In this document: positions 1-64,000 of the stretch, piece by piece
Position numbering within the stretch: position 1 is the stretch's first letter
Layout: each line of letters starts with the position of its first letter
Sequence record: OQ599310
DNA: 64,000 nt
Source: Escherichia phage 55
Reading direction: 5' to 3' (one strand)
Position numbers and translations under genes: made by a program
Notes under the pieces: model-generated
What the model was told of the DNA's origin: nothing
Database searches by the model: none
Seen by the model: the letters and a program-made list of their open reading frames with translations, nothing else

Positions 1-402
1 AGTATGTACTTGAACACCGGGCATTATTCTCACGGTGATGCAGGATTCATTGCGCCTAATGATGTGTTGATTCATATTAGTCGTTCTGGTAAAACTGAAG
101 AAATGATAGGCGTGGCTAAGCATCTTAAAATGATTCGACCGAACGTCAAACAGATTCTGTTGCATTGTAACCCAGACATTCCACAAGAAAATGAAGCCCT
201 TTTTGATTACTCTTTCTGTACAGGCATCGCGGTAGAGGTTGATGAGAATTCTCTGGCTCCGACCATGTCCACTACATTGTTGTTAGCGCTTATCGATACG
301 TTTGCTATCAACCTTTCGTCTGAACGTGGATTTACCTCTAATGACTTCCTTAAGTTCCATCCAGGCGGTGCACTAGGTGCCATGTTACGAGGCGAGCAAT
401 GA
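1..402 (+). CDS. SIS-domain sugar-phosphate isomerase, KpsF/KdsD-like (arabinose-5-phosphate isomerase family); 5' end lies outside the window
   Basis: Translation aligns to the C-terminal half of the KdsD SIS domain (HGD.G, ISRSG, APT.STT, HPGGALG motifs); no CBS domains follow; the Met at 4 is internal to the alignment so the gene starts upstream. Confidence 0.7.
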   Translation, partial: SMYLNTGHYSHGDAGFIAPNDVLIHISRSGKTEEMIGVAKHLKMIRPNVKQILLHCNPDIPQENEALFDYSFCTGIAVEVDENSLAPTMSTTLLLALIDTFAINLSSERGFTSNDFLKFHPGGALGAMLRGEQ

Positions 403-542
403 AAGCAATAACAATAGGACTTTTACTATTGATGCTTGCCATGACTATCTACTGGAGCTTAACGGCTCCAGTAATGATTCCAACACTTGTAATTGGATGG
501 ATTATGATTGGTCTACAGGCAAAGTATGAATGCTTTAACTAG
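399..542 (+). CDS. small hydrophobic protein (47 aa, two predicted TM helices)
   Basis: ATG overlaps the stop of the upstream gene (ATGA); continuous ORF with strongly hydrophobic translation; below the ORF-track length cutoff. Confidence 0.3.
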   Translation: MKAITIGLLLLMLAMTIYWSLTAPVMIPTLVIGWIMIGLQAKYECFN

Positions 543-555
543 AATAGTGTACAAT
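531..555 (+). promoter_or_regulatory. candidate MotA-dependent middle promoter (MotA box TGCTTTA, then TACAAT -10 about 12 bp downstream)
   Basis: TGCTTTA at 531-537 and TACAAT at 550-555 upstream of the 584 ORF. Confidence 0.3.
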
Positions 556-583
556 ACACCTACTTACCAATGAGGACTTCAAC

Positions 584-2269
584 ATGAAAAAAGCTGTTAT
601 TCTTGGTGCTGGATTAGCAACTCGTTTATATCCAATTACTCACCATATTCCTAAGGTGCTTGTTAACTATAAACAAGACACTATTCTGAGCAATTTGTAT
701 ACAATTTATTCTGACCTTGGCGCAGATGAAATTATTGTAGTAGTTCATTCAAAATTTGCTGAAACTGTTCGAGCTTATTGTGAGCAAGAAGGGTTCAATG
801 TGACTATTCGTACAGTTGATGAAGCGTATGGATCTGCTTATGCTCTTGCTAAATTACACAAAGATTTAGACGGCCATAATGTAATTGTTAACTGGTGTGA
901 TATTATTCCTGATTTTGGTTCATGGTCTTGGAATGTCAACGCAATCTATGTTAAGGGTGATGAATGTCGATATAATTTCGACGGTGAAAATATCACTAAC
1001 GTAGGTTCAACAGGCGGTAATGTTGTAGGAATTTATCAGTTCAAAGACTGGGAATTCTATATGGGTTCTACCGATGAGGAAATTCATGAATACTGCAAAG
1101 GACGTGATTTCGTAGAATTCCTTTACAGCGGCGCATTCAATAAATCAGAGCTTATGAATATAATTGATTTAGGTGATATGCCTAAACTTGAAAAAGCTCA
1201 TGAAGTTCGTGAACTTAATCGTAGTTTTAATGCAGTTGAAATTGGTGAAGAAACTGTAACTAAATTCGCATTAACCGAACAGGGACGAGCTCTTCAGAAA
1301 GATGAGATTTCATGGTATTTGAAAGTGAAATCAGATTCAGTTCCTCAGTTAGTTTCTGTTAATGAAAACAATTTTGAAATGGAACGTATTAAAGGTAAGC
1401 CGGCATTTGAATATATTAAATCCAAATCAAGTCTTGCTCGTCCACAAATTGTTGATGCAATTTTAGATGCACTGAAATTCAGCACAGACACGTATTTTGT
1501 AAGTCCTGAAACTGTTCGTCGTGATTTCACTAAAGAATTCTATACGAAAGTTATTGATCGTTGTGAAAGCATTCAACCATTGATTGATTCATTTGGTAAA
1601 ATCACACATGTGAACTACACTAAGATTGGACGTCTGAAGCCAATGTTGAAACAAGCTTTAGAACATCTTATTCGTTATCATAACCGTTCTCAGGGACAGT
1701 ACTCTGTTATTCATGGTGACCCGAACTTCAGTAATACTATGATTACTGATAACGGCGAAGTCAAGTTTATCGACCCTCGTGGATATTTTGGCGAAACCAA
1801 GATTTACGGGCCAAAATTGTATGACGAAGCTAAAGTGCTTTATGCTGTTTCAGGTTATGATGAATTCAATGCTAATCCGACCTGGGGACAGTTTACTATT
1901 GATGAAACAACTTGTAATGTGACTATTAACATCAATCCATTAATTTACAAATATGGAAAGATGAGTTCGTTTAACGAGTATCATCATTTGGCGGTGGCAA
2001 TTATCTGGATTGCATTAGGTGGTTATTTCAAGAATAATCCACTTAAAGCGGTAGCCGCATATTATAAAGGTATGGAACTTCTGACTAAGCAATTACGTAA
2101 CATGGGCCGTGTACTTCAAGACGGCTCTATTAGTTATGACGTAGCAGAACCTGTAACGGCTACTCTGATTACAAAAAATCCTGGTAAATGGGTACTAACT
2201 GATAAAGAAACTGGTGTTTCCTATCGTCCAATCGGTGGCGATATCACTCACCAATGGGAACGAATCTAA
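584..2269 (+). CDS. bifunctional sugar-1-phosphate nucleotidyltransferase (N-terminal, RmlA/GalU-like) fused to APH/NahK-like anomeric sugar kinase (C-terminal)
   Basis: N-terminus ILGAGLATRLYPIT..PKVLV matches the G-x-G-T-R-L-Y-P-I-T nucleotidyltransferase signature; C-terminal region has HGDPNFSN catalytic loop and FIDPRG typical of aminoglycoside-phosphotransferase-fold kinases; GAGGA RBS upstream. Confidence 0.65.
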   Translation: MKKAVILGAGLATRLYPITHHIPKVLVNYKQDTILSNLYTIYSDLGADEIIVVVHSKFAETVRAYCEQEGFNVTIRTVDEAYGSAYALAKLHKDLDGHNVIVNWCDIIPDFGSWSWNVNAIYVKGDECRYNFDGENITNVGSTGGNVVGIYQFKDWEFYMGSTDEEIHEYCKGRDFVEFLYSGAFNKSELMNIIDLGDMPKLEKAHEVRELNRSFNAVEIGEETVTKFALTEQGRALQKDEISWYLKVKSDSVPQLVSVNENNFEMERIKGKPAFEYIKSKSSLARPQIVDAILDALKFSTDTYFVSPETVRRDFTKEFYTKVIDRCESIQPLIDSFGKITHVNYTKIGRLKPMLKQALEHLIRYHNRSQGQYSVIHGDPNFSNTMITDNGEVKFIDPRGYFGETKIYGPKLYDEAKVLYAVSGYDEFNANPTWGQFTIDETTCNVTININPLIYKYGKMSSFNEYHHLAVAIIWIALGGYFKNNPLKAVAAYYKGMELLTKQLRNMGRVLQDGSISYDVAEPVTATLITKNPGKWVLTDKETGVSYRPIGGDITHQWERI

Positions 2270-2655
2270 TGCACCGTGTAGAAAACATGCTTAATCTTTG
2301 TTTTGATGTCGATGATTGTATAACAGAGTGGAATAACAATCGTGATTACGTGAACTTCAAACCAGACGTCGAAATGGTGTCTGCCATTAATGCCTTGTAT
2401 GATGCAGGGCATACCATAACGCTTTACACTGCTCGCGGTATGAAGTCAGTAGGTCCCGGTCGTATAGCAATTGACATTCTCCCGAGTCTGATTCAGAACT
2501 TGGAAAACATTGGCTTGAAGTACCATAATTTGCTAACACATAAACCAGTATATGATTGGATTATCGACGACAAAGCTATGCGTCCTGACGAATTCAAAGC
2601 TCTTATGAATAAAGGCGAATTCGAAACATTTAAATCATATAAACCGAATCTATAA
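2254..2655 (+). CDS. HAD-superfamily phosphatase (small, resembling the phosphatase domain of polynucleotide kinase)
   Basis: Motifs CFDVDDCIT (motif I), AGHTITLYTARG, YDWIIDDKA parallel the pseT phosphatase-domain motifs [21 protein letters not shown] in the same window; alternative start at 2269 (TAATG overlap). Confidence 0.55.
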   Translation: MGTNLMHRVENMLNLCFDVDDCITEWNNNRDYVNFKPDVEMVSAINALYDAGHTITLYTARGMKSVGPGRIAIDILPSLIQNLENIGLKYHNLLTHKPVYDWIIDDKAMRPDEFKALMNKGEFETFKSYKPNL

Positions 2656-2709
2656 TAATTTAAGTAAGACCTGCAAAAACCATCGCATCAATTAACGCGA
2701 GATGCAAAA

Positions 2710-3870
2710 ATGAACACTTTTAAAATCGGAACGAATTTTGATTTAGCTCTTCTTGATAAAATCGTAGAGCTCAATAAAACCTATCCTAATAGCTTGATAA
2801 ACGAAGTATATGGCTCTACAAGAGAAATGGCTTTTGTAGCAGCCAGACCTGATTTTAGGCTTCCTGACGTTGACAAAAAGATGTTAGAAGACTACGTTAA
2901 ACGTTGTAACGAATTAGGTATTTGCTTTAACTATACACTCAACACGATAAATCCTGGTTCAAAAAGAGAACTAGTTGAGTGGAAGAAGAAAGCTATTCAG
3001 GATTATGTTCAGTATCTTTGGTCAATAGGCGTATGGCGTATTACTATCGCTAACCCTGTTGTTATGGAAATTGTTCGTGAAGTCAATAAAGATATTGAGA
3101 TTGAAGTTTCAACAATTCTACATGTCGATGCTGTAACTCAAATCAAATACTTGCACGACCAATATAACATCAAAAAAGTCTGTTGCGGAATTCATAAGAA
3201 CCGTTCAGTTTCTTTCCTGAAGCGTGCAGCAGAGTTTTGCAATAAGAACAATATAATATTTGAAGTTCTTGTAAATGAGTTCTGTTCTAATGCTGGTAAA
3301 GGGTATACAACACATTGTAGTTATCGTGACTCTTGCTATATTTTCCATAGTACTGATGTTACCGCTGATGATGCTAAATCCTTAAATGGATATCCAATGC
3401 AGCACTGTATTAAAGCTCGTGATACAGATCCATTTAACTGGTTGAGAACTCGTTTTGTTCGTCCTCAAGATTTGAAACTTTATAATGATATTGGTATCAC
3501 TCAATTCAAAGTTTCAGGACGTACAGGTAGCACAGACTACATTTTGAAAGTTCTTGAAGCATACGCTTCTGAAAAGTTTGAAGGTAATTTGTTAGAACTG
3601 TGGAAGCCTTTAGAGACTATTTTCACTCTTGAAAACGAAACTGAGTTTTCACATACAGTAAATATTGAAACCTCTTTGTTAGATGGCTTTTTAGAAAAAA
3701 GGTGGTTCAGACATCCAGATTTTGATTGTGCTAATGAAATCTGTGGGTCAACGTGTACATATTGTGAAAGGTATTATAAACGTCAATTATCTAAAAACGG
3801 GTTAGCAGAAAACTCCATATCTATTATTGATATAACTAGCTCTGATGACGCTTTGAGATACCCGGAATGA
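2710..3870 (+). CDS. Cys-rich protein with divergent peptidase-U32-like motifs (family that includes Fe-S dependent hydroxylases RlhA/TrhP/UbiU-V); function unknown
   Basis: Segments FNYTLNTI, EVLVNEFCSNAGKGYTTHCSYRDSC and FKVSGRTGSTDY resemble the U32 core and GR motifs; assignment is from memory of the family signature and is tentative. Confidence 0.4.
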   Translation: MNTFKIGTNFDLALLDKIVELNKTYPNSLINEVYGSTREMAFVAARPDFRLPDVDKKMLEDYVKRCNELGICFNYTLNTINPGSKRELVEWKKKAIQDYVQYLWSIGVWRITIANPVVMEIVREVNKDIEIEVSTILHVDAVTQIKYLHDQYNIKKVCCGIHKNRSVSFLKRAAEFCNKNNIIFEVLVNEFCSNAGKGYTTHCSYRDSCYIFHSTDVTADDAKSLNGYPMQHCIKARDTDPFNWLRTRFVRPQDLKLYNDIGITQFKVSGRTGSTDYILKVLEAYASEKFEGNLLELWKPLETIFTLENETEFSHTVNIETSLLDGFLEKRWFRHPDFDCANEICGSTCTYCERYYKRQLSKNGLAENSISIIDITSSDDALRYPE

Positions 3871-4106
3871 TTTCTAGAAAAAGTTTTAATTATAAACTTA
3901 ACGAAGAGATTTTGACTATGAAACTGAACACTAACGAACAAATTCTTAAAAAGGCCCTTATGGGCCTGTTTGAAACCAAAGCGGCTAAAGTGATTAAAGA
4001 ACCTGTTCAATTGGAATACTACACTGATGCATTCCTTCATAGTGTTCTTGGAAGTATAGATTCTGAAGCTTTACGTTATATCAACATTGCCAAGAAATTC
4101 AAATAA
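3867..4106 (+). CDS. hypothetical protein (79 aa)
   Basis: ORF with ATGA start overlap to upstream gene. Confidence 0.4.
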   Translation: MISRKSFNYKLNEEILTMKLNTNEQILKKALMGLFETKAAKVIKEPVQLEYYTDAFLHSVLGSIDSEALRYINIAKKFK

Positions 4107-4148
4107 GCTTTATGAATTGAGTATATAATAAATTGTATTGAGGTAAAC

Positions 4149-4865
4149 ATGGGAAAACATAACACAATGAAATATATCAAAGCCGCAGATTTTCAAACCG
4201 CATTTAAAGCAGTCAATCGTGAAATTTTAGAAAACCCGGAATTCGTAACCGATTCTCGTATTGGACGTTGTAATGAAATTGGGTCTATGACAGTAGTTGT
4301 TGACAATCCATCATCATTCAAAATGACCGACCCACGTATTAACCGCATCTCTTATGAATATGCCGAAGACTTCTGGAAGTTTATGATTTCTGGTGGTACT
4401 GATGCAGAAGAAGCGTTTAAGGCATATCCTAATGTCGCTAAATTTATTTCTAAACCTAAATCAGACGCTTTGCCTGCAAACTTCAACACTTTCTACGGTC
4501 CTCGCATTGCGGCCCAATTACCAGCTCTTCTAAAAGAACTTAAAGAGAAACCTAACTCTCGAAGAGTTGTGTTCCAAATTCTAGAAAGTTCTGATCAGGC
4601 TTTGCTTGATTCGGACGAAACACTTGAATATCCATGTACTGACTCAGTAACTTATTATATTCGTGATGGTAAGCTTTATACCCACTGCCATATGCGTTCT
4701 CAGAACTGTGCTGTTGTTATGCAGTTGGATTTTTATCTCCAAGGAAAATTACTTCATTATATCGCTAACGAATGCGGTGTAGAAGTTGGTGATTATACTC
4801 ATACCATGGTAAGTGCCCATGTGTTTGAACGTGATTTTGATTATGTTAAAGGATTCCTTGACTAA
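4149..4865 (+). CDS. 42: dCMP hydroxymethylase (thymidylate-synthase-fold), gene 42
   Basis: TS-family core YPCTD...GKLYTHCHMRSQN with Cys nucleophile; size 238 aa; sits upstream of uvsX as gene 42 does in T4. Confidence 0.7.
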   Translation: MGKHNTMKYIKAADFQTAFKAVNREILENPEFVTDSRIGRCNEIGSMTVVVDNPSSFKMTDPRINRISYEYAEDFWKFMISGGTDAEEAFKAYPNVAKFISKPKSDALPANFNTFYGPRIAAQLPALLKELKEKPNSRRVVFQILESSDQALLDSDETLEYPCTDSVTYYIRDGKLYTHCHMRSQNCAVVMQLDFYLQGKLLHYIANECGVEVGDYTHTMVSAHVFERDFDYVKGFLD

Positions 4866-5764
4866 TGGCTATTTTCCGCGTACCAATCTTGAGTATGCGG
4901 TCTTATGAAACTGGACAGTATGCTATCCTTAAGGATGGCAACTTCCAACTTCATTTGCACCGTGCTAATCCAGGTGATGTGATTACATATCCACGTAATG
5001 CATCTGATATTAAAGAATGCGAACGTCTTTTCCCAGAATTTAAGTTTGTTCCATTATGGTATAAAGATAACGCGTATAACACTCGTAAATATTTCTGGTC
5101 TGAAAATGAATTTGTGGTTGATTCATTAATTGCTTATTATGATTGTGATTTTCTAATCACAGATATCACCGGATATGACGGCGCTTTTGATGTTGAATTC
5201 AATTTCAATATCACTGCAGACCCTAATAAACCACGTTTTTATATTGACGAATTCTTAAAAACCGATATGTTGTCGGTTAATCGTTCACTTCAAACTACTG
5301 TGTTGAATGAACGTCAAAAAGAAGTGCTGGTTAACGCAGGTGCAGATGGTAATAAGATTATCGTAACGCAGAAAGTTATACGTCCTTCCATCATGCAGCG
5401 TCTTGTAGGTGATTTGGCCCCTATTCATCTAGATGGTATTTTTCATCCATTTCGAATTAGTGACCCATGCTATCGTTTTGAACAAGTGGTTGAATGTGCA
5501 ATTCAATTAGGTCAACCGCTTTATATAACCGATCCAAATAATAGTTTCGACAGAAATAAGTATCCTGAAGAAGCGCTGATTCGAATTTTTAAACCAACTA
5601 AAACTGAGTACTATCAAATTCTTAAAGGACGACCGAAGATTCAATATTTCGAAAATCCTGAAGAAGTATTCCATCCAGGTCTTGGCGAGTTCATCTACTT
5701 TAATGCTTTAATTTCTTCGCCGTATAATATACCTAAATACGAAGATGTCGTAATCGAGGAATAA
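4865..5764 (+). CDS. hypothetical protein occupying the locus of T4 beta-glucosyltransferase; candidate DNA-modifying transferase
   Basis: 299-aa ORF, TAATG overlap with gene 42; no similarity I can recognise to T4 beta-gt. Confidence 0.45.
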   Translation: MAIFRVPILSMRSYETGQYAILKDGNFQLHLHRANPGDVITYPRNASDIKECERLFPEFKFVPLWYKDNAYNTRKYFWSENEFVVDSLIAYYDCDFLITDITGYDGAFDVEFNFNITADPNKPRFYIDEFLKTDMLSVNRSLQTTVLNERQKEVLVNAGADGNKIIVTQKVIRPSIMQRLVGDLAPIHLDGIFHPFRISDPCYRFEQVVECAIQLGQPLYITDPNNSFDRNKYPEEALIRIFKPTKTEYYQILKGRPKIQYFENPEEVFHPGLGEFIYFNALISSPYNIPKYEDVVIEE

Positions 5765-5765
5765 A

Positions 5766-6314
5766 ATGGCTAAAATTATTTTAGTAGATGGCCCAGATAA
5801 TGCCGGTAAAACAACTTTCATTAATGACATAATGGAAATTAGTGAAAGATACGTAAAGATTGATTTCCCTAAACGAACAGTTGATGGACGTTTCGATGTT
5901 AAGTCTCGAAATGAAGTTGGTTGTTTCGAAACGATGTTGAATTATTTAGACCCTACTAAGATTTATCTGTTAGACCGTGGATATATTAGTAACTGGGTTT
6001 ATGGACGTATTCGACAAGATGCGGACTCTGTTCTTGATGTTTATGAGCAGGATTATGTTCGTCTTTGCCAAAACCATGATGTGTTCACAATTATTTTAAC
6101 ACGTAACGAAATGACTGAAAGTTTTGAAGACGACCTTATTACTTTGTCTTCATTCGGTTTTAATACAGTCATTTCACATTTTGAAGAGTTTGCAATTCAT
6201 AACAAAATCCAAACGTATCAATTACTTAATCATGATGGTGCTAACAAAGTTATAGGATTTAATGCAAGCGAACGTAATGGTTTGATTATAGAAATCATCA
6301 AATGGGCTCGTTAA
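5766..6314 (+). CDS. thymidylate-kinase-like P-loop nucleotide kinase
   Basis: P-loop VDGPDNAGKTT and LDRGYISNWVYG resembling the TMK DR(Y/H)..S..AYQ motif. Confidence 0.5.
   Translation: MAKIILVDGPDNAGKTTFINDIMEISERYVKIDFPKRTVDGRFDVKSRNEVGCFETMLNYLDPTKIYLLDRGYISNWVYGRIRQDADSVLDVYEQDYVRLCQNHDVFTIILTRNEMTESFEDDLITLSSFGFNTVISHFEEFAIHNKIQTYQLLNHDGANKVIGFNASERNGLIIEIIKWAR

Positions 6315-63001: not shown

Positions 63002-63002
<1 letters not shown>
62703..63002 (+). CDS. hypothetical protein
   Basis: ORF. Confidence 0.4.

Positions 63003-64000
<998 letters not shown>

Follow-up and report, generated by a model that had tools for sequence, protein, structure and literature searches.

A stand-alone HAD phosphatase of an RB69-like Escherichia phage as a probable ortholog of the arabinofuranose 1,5-bisphosphate phosphatase AfhF

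The analyzed DNA (64,000 nucleotides from Escherichia phage 55, record OQ599310; hereafter, the window) shared 97.7–98% DNA identity over its first 6.5 kb with phage RB69 and some 150 further genomes of Mosigvirus, and by sequence similarity the window is assigned to an RB69-like Mosigvirus. The following features were recognized at this end:

1–402, plus strand: arabinose-5-phosphate isomerase gene with SIS domain (RB69 gp55), present with its 3' part only, as the window begins within the gene (PHROG 5670, E=1.4e-76, profile 79–210 of 210; KpsF/KdsD NCBIfam matches)
399–542: small membrane ORF
584–2269, plus strand: AfhE-like bifunctional enzyme, corresponding to RB69 ORF53_52c (Pfam NTP_transferase, E=8e-10, and weak kinase matches; PHROG 4098, E=1.5e-294; literature)
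2269–2655, plus strand: putative afhF ortholog (RB69 gp51/ORF051c), a 128-aa capless HAD phosphatase (9IQW, 127/128; synteny and length of RB69p051; PHROG 1238; TIGR01689 below cutoff)
2710–3870: U32-family protein
3867–4106: small ORF
4149–4865, plus strand: thymidylate-synthase homolog, RB69 gp48 (Pfam Thymidylat_synt, E=2.4e-15)
4865–5764, plus strand: glycosyltransferase, RB69 gp46:47 (PHROG 3891, E=3e-156; RB69 annotation; Table 1 of Lee et al.)
5766–6314, plus strand: dNMP/thymidylate-kinase-like protein, RB69 gp45 (PHROG 761, E=8e-45; Table 1 of Lee et al.)

The genes for the AfhE-type nucleotidyltransferase/kinase, the arabinose-5-phosphate isomerase, the ThyA-like hydroxylase and the glycosyltransferase were all located on the afhF strand within positions 1–6314. 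The AfhE-like protein combined an N-terminal sugar-1-phosphate nucleotidyltransferase with a C-terminal APH-like kinase domain. In RB69, the corresponding phosphatase gene (RB69p051/ORF051c) is positioned between ORF53_52c (nucleotidyltransferase/kinase) and ORF050c (U32 'peptidase') in a non-T4 module flanked by gene 43 and uvsX; the glycosyltransferase gene at 4865–5764, intact in the window, is split in the RB69 reference. RB69 gp48 has been described as a dCMP 5-hydroxylase making the acceptor hydroxyl, and gp46:47 is listed in Table 1 of the same work as arabinosyltransferase 1 (Lee et al., 2026, PMC13326640). The gene of interest is placed within the published cluster for UDP-arabinofuranose and arabinosyl-5-hydroxycytosine DNA modification, and according to the neighboring annotations in phage records it always accompanies the nucleotidyltransferase/kinase gene. 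For the U32-like neighbor, a PDB sequence search gave no match and a literature search combining U32, hydroxycytosine and phage found nothing.

In the ORF list of the window, the reading frame at 2254–2655 on the plus strand comprised 133 codons and encoded ...LCFDVDDCITEW..., also quoted as ...NLCFDVDDCITEW.... The FDVDDC motif that the original prediction had read in this ORF was confirmed by the codons at 2302–2319 (TTT GAT GTC GAT GAT TGT, giving F-D-V-D-D-C), albeit the true start is probably the ATG at 2269 and not the one at 2254, which shortens the product to 128 aa. The ATG at 2254 is in frame but lies within the preceding gene, whose stop codon at 2267–2269 forms a TAATG stop/start overlap with the ATG at 2269. 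The downstream start is favored by the length of the RefSeq CDS of RB69p051 (387 nt), by the 9IQW chain, whose native portion begins with MHRV, and by the homolog cluster representatives, which are 128 aa long. With this start, the first 15 nt of 2254–2655 would belong to the upstream gene only. The afhF gene is probably translationally coupled within the sugar-nucleotide cluster. The match to PHROG 1238 (E=3e-43), the presence of homologs in 374 phage records and the identity of 127/128 residues to a crystallized protein all argue for a genuine gene as opposed to a chance ORF.

That protein is PDB entry 9IQW, released on 2025-07-16 under the title 'phage HY126 encoded D-arabinose 1,5-diphosphate phosphatase AfhF'. 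In the PDB sequence search (phmmer) it was matched with E=9e-87, and the lone difference, Glu79 in the present protein against Ala, falls outside the motifs. Modeling with AlphaFold2 from 20 homologs (mean pLDDT 80.9) gave a Rossmannoid alpha/beta HAD core fold, and the best Foldseek match of the model was again 9IQW (E=8e-24, TM 0.9). Foldseek ranks 1–45 in the PDB were occupied throughout by HAD enzymes, led by 9IQW and 1xpj, followed by T4 Pnkp and then by GmhB, HisB-N and KdsC, with MDP-1 also among them. KdsC, which the original prediction had put forward as a HAD subfamily for comparison, proved remote: no KdsC model was present among the NCBIfam matches, and the Foldseek match to 1k1e had E=0.038 and TM 0.39. 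PHROG 1238 carries the misleading label 'phosphoheptose isomerase', the Pfam scan gave no family at E<=0.1, and the closest NCBIfam model, TIGR01689 (EcbF-BcbF), was matched over profile positions 1–111 of 126 with E=1.9e-13 and 50.5 bits against a cutoff of 162 bits, so that the protein is a relative of this family and not a member.

Taken together, we regard the gene, with a probability of roughly 0.93, as the ortholog of afhF in a T-even phage of the RB69 type. Its product would be a HAD phosphatase that stands alone, lacks a cap, depends on Mg2+ and converts arabinofuranose 1,5-bisphosphate to arabinofuranose 1-phosphate. The identity, motifs, fold and gene context in this assignment come from the present analysis, while the substrate and the Mg2+ dependence are taken from the title of the PDB entry and from a summary in the secondary literature. 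AfhF itself has been described before: a protein with 99% identity was crystallized and named, and RB69 gp51 has been assigned in print as an analog of AfhF (Lee et al., 2026, PMC13326640).

The original prediction of a minimal HAD phosphatase held for the 128-aa capless protein, in which the HAD motifs are intact:

2305–2319, plus strand: HAD motif I, D13-V-D15-D16-C17 (from the sequence; D13 and D15 invariant in 20 aligned homologs)
2422–2439, plus strand: HAD motif II, L-Y-T54-A-R56-G (T54 and R56 invariant; aligned with TVSGR of pseT by hhalign and with STARN of 1xpj)
2542–2544, plus strand: HAD motif III, Lys92 (invariant; aligned with GKP of 1xpj)
2566–2571, plus strand: HAD motif IV, Asp100-Asp101, putative Mg2+ ligands (both invariant; aligned with IDDR of 1xpj)

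The motif I Asp and Asp+2, the motif II Thr, the motif III Lys and the acidic pair of motif IV are thus all present, and motifs I to IV match DLDGT, STAR, GKP and IDDR of 1xpj. D13, D15, T54, R56, K92, D100 and D101 were invariant in the 20 aligned homologs, the most distant of which had 35% identity, so that the loss of catalytic Asp residues, which would have spoken against the original prediction, was not observed. In motif II, R56 aligns with the arginine of the SGR of pseT and T54 is the phosphate-binding Thr.

Motif I had been called atypical in comparison with DxDG(T/V), which was overstated. The HAD consensus at this place is DxDx(T/V), with no requirement for Gly, and a missing Gly is therefore nothing unusual. 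The D-x-D pair was found in all 48 homolog clusters; the fourth position was mostly Asn (29 clusters) or Asp (14), with Glu in 3 and Gln and Gly in one each, and the fifth (+4) was Thr in 45 of the 48. Cys at +4 was limited to three clusters: the RB69-like one, Pectobacterium phage PM2 and one metagenomic sequence. What remains of the claim is that Cys17 is off-consensus; it is the sole departure in motif I and a clade-specific variant. The crystallized HY126 AfhF, reported as active, carries an identical DVDDC, and the residue at +4 is a consensus preference not needed for catalysis. The Thr to Cys exchange in DVDDC, limited to the RB69/PM2-like clade, might change how the enzyme catalyzes its reaction, how it handles metal or how sensitive it is to redox conditions, as compared with the DxDNT relatives. 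We consider it improbable, on the whole, that the Thr to Cys exchange is non-neutral, that the enzyme takes further sugar bisphosphates, or that the kinase/HAD/nucleotidyltransferase trios found elsewhere represent uncharacterized NDP-sugar pathways.

Arabinose in RB69 DNA was reported by Thomas et al. (2018, PMC6024577), who tentatively assigned the synthesis of UDP-arabinose to ORF055c and ORF53_52c and did not discuss ORF051c; neither the Thanatos paper nor the Durham-collection paper mentions an AfhF-type phosphatase. The modified base has been shown to be arabinosylated 5-hydroxycytosine (Lee et al., 2026, PMC13326640). As He et al. (2026) are summarized by Lee et al. (PMC13326640), AfhE phosphorylates arabinofuranose 5-phosphate to the 1,5-bisphosphate, AfhF is a Mg2+-dependent phosphatase that turns the latter into arabinofuranose 1-phosphate, and the nucleotidyltransferase domain of AfhE then produces UDP-arabinofuranose. 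In the published pathway (Lee et al., citing He et al.), as transferred to the present cluster, the phage SIS isomerase would convert ribulose-5-phosphate to arabinose-5-phosphate, the kinase domain of the AfhE-like protein would phosphorylate C1, AfhF would take D-arabinofuranose 1,5-bisphosphate to arabinofuranose 1-phosphate by releasing the phosphate at C5, and the nucleotidyltransferase domain would complete the synthesis of UDP-arabinofuranose, so that the AfhE-like protein would both supply the substrate of AfhF and use its product. The phage glycosyltransferases would finally move the arabinose onto 5-hydroxycytosine in the phage DNA, protecting it from host nucleases. By inference from general HAD chemistry, Asp13 would attack the phosphate to form an aspartyl-phosphate with Asp15 as general acid/base, Thr54 and Lys92 would hold the phosphoryl group, and Asp100 and Asp101 would bind Mg2+.

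In the ADP-heptose pathway, the GmhA isomerase, the HldE kinase, the bisphosphate phosphatase GmhB and the HldE nucleotidyltransferase act together, and the logic of the arabinofuranose pathway runs parallel to it. The original prediction of a sugar phosphate as substrate, here one of the arabinose pathway, is well in line with the title of 9IQW and with Lee et al. (2026, PMC13326640), and probably correct for the present protein. Its choice of arabinose-5-phosphate was slightly off: in the published account, as far as it is summarized by Lee et al., the substrate is D-arabinofuranose 1,5-bisphosphate, from which the 5-phosphate is removed.

A monophosphate as the substrate does have some printed backing, since Table 1 of Lee et al. 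(PMC13326640) is worded differently from their text: there the phosphatase 'dephosphorylates Araf5p to Ara' and the partner enzyme 'phosphorylates Ara to Araf1p'. AfhF would then produce free arabinose directly from arabinose 5-phosphate before phosphorylation of C1 by the kinase domain, a scheme that resembles the original prediction, and HAD sugar phosphatases are, as a rule, often promiscuous. We consider this route unlikely. In their main text, Lee et al. adopt the biochemistry of the HY126 enzyme, in summarized form, and have the 1,5-bisphosphate converted to the 1-phosphate (PMC13326640), the depositors of the 99%-identical protein call it a D-arabinose 1,5-diphosphate phosphatase, and a GmhB-like bisphosphate logic suits the fused kinase/nucleotidyltransferase partner.

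The origin of the gene suggested in the original prediction involves the opposite end of the window, where a second HAD phosphatase domain is encoded:

63190–64000, plus strand: pseT, polynucleotide kinase/3'-phosphatase, with a GTG start and cut by the window end (translation; Pfam AAA_33, E=2e-23, and HAD_PNKP, E=1.3e-38)

The 270 codons of pseT contained in the window include motif I as FDLDGT and match HAD_PNKP with 132.8 bits over profile positions 1–114 of 143, its motif IV being beyond the window end. The original prediction saw the later motifs of the small phosphatase as parallel to those of pseT and suggested a duplicated and repurposed module. The parallel stood in part: in hhalign, motifs I and II of the AfhF family and of the pseT phosphatase part were in register over 51 columns (74% probability, E=2.9e-5), while motif IV of pseT is out of reach in the window and BLASTP of the small phosphatase against the pseT fragment gave no in-register match, only an out-of-register one of 15 residues (E=0.11). 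The latter result leads us to reject a recent duplication of pseT. The same hhalign comparison with 1xpj extended over 103 columns with 98.7% probability and E=2.8e-16, and the 1xpj/EcbF-BcbF group is far closer to AfhF than pseT is.

It is also hardly credible that such a module persists here and still works on nucleic-acid 3'-phosphate ends. The T4 Pnkp phosphatase domains are indeed the nearest solved folds outside the protein's own family in Foldseek, and besides the pairing of motifs I and II with pseT there is a weak match to PHROG 415, 'polynucleotide kinase' (E=0.0036). However, the Foldseek matches to T4 Pnkp (2ia5, 1ltq, 5uj0) had E of about 2e-3 and weaker, with TM 0.40–0.53 and 10–14% identity; HAD_PNKP (PF25109) was absent from the Pfam matches of the protein, in contrast to the high score of pseT, and was touched by just 2 of the 20 AfhF family members, at E>=0.2. 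The Pnkp-type kinase fusion is missing as well: the protein stands alone with 128 aa, the upstream gene encodes a nucleotidyltransferase/APH-type kinase and not a P-loop kinase, and the whole is embedded in a sugar-nucleotide cluster, with a homologous trio in a bacterial MAG (see below). The idea of a repurposed pseT copy was accordingly abandoned; AfhF and the pseT phosphatase are distant cousins in the capless HAD group and not recent duplicates.

Just as implausible is a nucleotidase of the 5'(3')-deoxyribonucleotidase type that would shift the balance of dNMPs, such as by depleting dCMP: it draws on an AFDB Foldseek match of RB69 gp51 to the putative 5'(3')-deoxyribonucleotidase Q8KD41 (Lee et al., PMC13326640), which is a generic HAD-fold resemblance only, while the PDB title and the published enzymology, in its summarized form, give a sugar bisphosphate, and the gene invariably accompanies that of the nucleotidyltransferase/kinase.

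Scanning genome contigs with the alignment of the AfhF family, using peptide patterns that are clade-specific and hence do not provide a census of cellular relatives, yielded two loci only: a T4-like phage contig of 167 kb that is classed as 'bacterium', and a Saccharibacteria MAG (L003). The latter encodes an APH-like kinase, a HAD protein and a nucleotidyltransferase as consecutive separate genes, adjoined by a GT2 glycosyltransferase gene. Its kinase matched the AfhE-like C-terminal domain with E=2e-9, and its HAD protein (141 aa, DVDGT) was 30% identical to the present one (E=1e-13). This trio suggests that the phage genes derive from a cellular module for sugar activation. A homologous kinase/HAD/nucleotidyltransferase trio is present in cyanophage P-SSM2 too. 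Both trios may belong to uncharacterized NDP-sugar pathways with the same bisphosphate logic.

The main value of these results is in annotation, as many phage records label the gene 'phosphoheptose isomerase' or 'hypothetical protein'; we propose 'D-arabinofuranose 1,5-bisphosphate 5-phosphatase AfhF' instead. Together with an AfhE-like gene, an arabinose-5-phosphate isomerase and a ThyA-like hydroxylase, afhF would predict arabinosyl-5-hydroxycytosine DNA, which bears on restriction sensitivity, sequencing and phage engineering. No new question is raised about the AfhF enzyme itself.

Compared with known systems, the protein is nearest to AfhF of Escherichia phage HY126 (PDB 9IQW), with which it shares 127 of 128 residues, the DVDDC and other HAD motifs, the length, the MHRV start and the presumed pathway role, the single substitution at position 79 (Glu/Ala) being the difference. 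RB69 gp51 (ORF051c, NP_861741.1) is its ortholog by synteny, the RB69 genome being 97.7% identical in this region, but carries the RefSeq name 'phosphoheptose isomerase', a misnomer. The Vibrio cholerae protein APC26283 (PDB 1xpj) and the EcbF-BcbF capsule phosphatases of TIGR01689 share with it the small HAD fold without a cap, and their motifs match along the full length (for 1xpj, 30–32% identity, phmmer E=1.4e-10 and Foldseek TM 0.71, in addition to the hhalign result), while having the canonical DLDGT in place of DVDDC. The T4-type Pnkp 3'-phosphatase domain (PF25109), which among solved folds comes directly behind 9IQW and 1xpj, shares the HAD fold and the aligned DxD and (S/T)xR motifs; in contrast to the stand-alone AfhF with its probable sugar phosphate substrate, it is fused to a P-loop kinase and acts on nucleic-acid 3' ends, and its identity is low, as given above. 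Finally, GmhB, the D,D-heptose 1,7-bisphosphate phosphatase, resembles AfhF in the HAD fold (Foldseek 3l8h, E=8e-3; 4pnh, E=1.6e-2) and in taking off the distal phosphate from a sugar 1,n-bisphosphate after a kinase and before a nucleotidyltransferase step, albeit without a sequence-family match, with a heptose instead of a pentose substrate and with a larger size (155–179 residues in the solved chains).

The afhF ortholog (2269-2655, RB69p051) carries the label 'phosphoheptose isomerase' in both PHROG 1238 and RefSeq, and this label, now carried by many genomes, is a misnomer: its product is a HAD phosphatase without a SIS domain. Other labels attached to afhF orthologs in phage records were 'capsule biosynthesis protein', 'polynucleotide kinase', 'haloacid dehydrogenase' and 'hypothetical protein'. 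The genes of the window considered further are the following.

584-2269, + strand: nucleotidyltransferase/kinase gene, one intact ORF of 561 aa
2710-3870, + strand: equivalent of RB69 gp50, annotated as 'peptidase' and belonging to the U32 family (PF01136 in Pfam, E=7e-11)
4865-5764, + strand: glycosyltransferase gene, one intact ORF of 299 aa
63190-64000, + strand: pseT, running off the end of the window at codon 270

In the RB69 reference record the nucleotidyltransferase/kinase and the glycosyltransferase are each represented by two CDSs (ORF053c/052c and ORF047c/046c, respectively), in contrast to the single ORFs present here. The RB69 splits have been regarded as sequencing errors (PMC6024577, PMC13326640), and the intact ORFs at 584-2269 and 4865-5764 are consistent with this view.

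The start codon of pseT appears to be GTG, which shares a GTGA sequence with the stop codon of the ORF before it (63002-63193) and is preceded by GAGG approximately 11 nt upstream.

The gp50-like gene is located directly downstream of the afhF ortholog. Its product gave a weak match to UbiU and no match in a PDB sequence search, and contained several Cys clusters, including the C-terminal CANEICGSTCTYC. The U32 proteins (RlhA, TrhP, UbiU/UbiV) function in O2-independent hydroxylation, including the formation of 5-hydroxycytidine in rRNA. The known dCMP 5-hydroxylase of the cluster requires O2 and flavin, and gp50 could provide an anaerobic route of 5-hydroxylation. A literature search found no paper connecting U32 with hydroxycytosine in phages, and the gp50 entry in Lee et al. 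(2026; PMC13326640) reads 'sugar or heterocycle reductase' and nothing further.

Homologs of AfhF were also found outside the window. The one with 58% identity is encoded on a contig of 167,038 bp (CAVJPU010000002.1). Listed in a genome collection under 'bacterium isolate ... cleanbin', this contig matches T4-like phage genomes in size and is probably a phage genome that was binned in error as bacterial. Two further loci had the following gene content.

2874-5472, Prochlorococcus phage P-SSM2: nucleotidyltransferase, carbohydrate kinase, HAD, nucleotidyltransferase and nucleotide-sugar epimerase, in this order
880-2985, Saccharibacteria MAG CAYRNS010000001.1: APH-like kinase, HAD phosphatase and nucleotidyltransferase, as three genes in succession

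The HAD protein of P-SSM2 is a distant homolog (38% identity), and the gene order suggests that cyanophages possess a related pathway for sugar activation. Comparable matches were obtained in P-TIM68, S-T4 and Enterococcus phage 9183. The Saccharibacteria phosphatase (141 aa) has a canonical motif I, DVDGT, and the trio is adjoined by genes for a GT2 glycosyltransferase and a large membrane protein. The trio is a cellular equivalent of the phage AfhE/AfhF module in which the enzymes are not fused.
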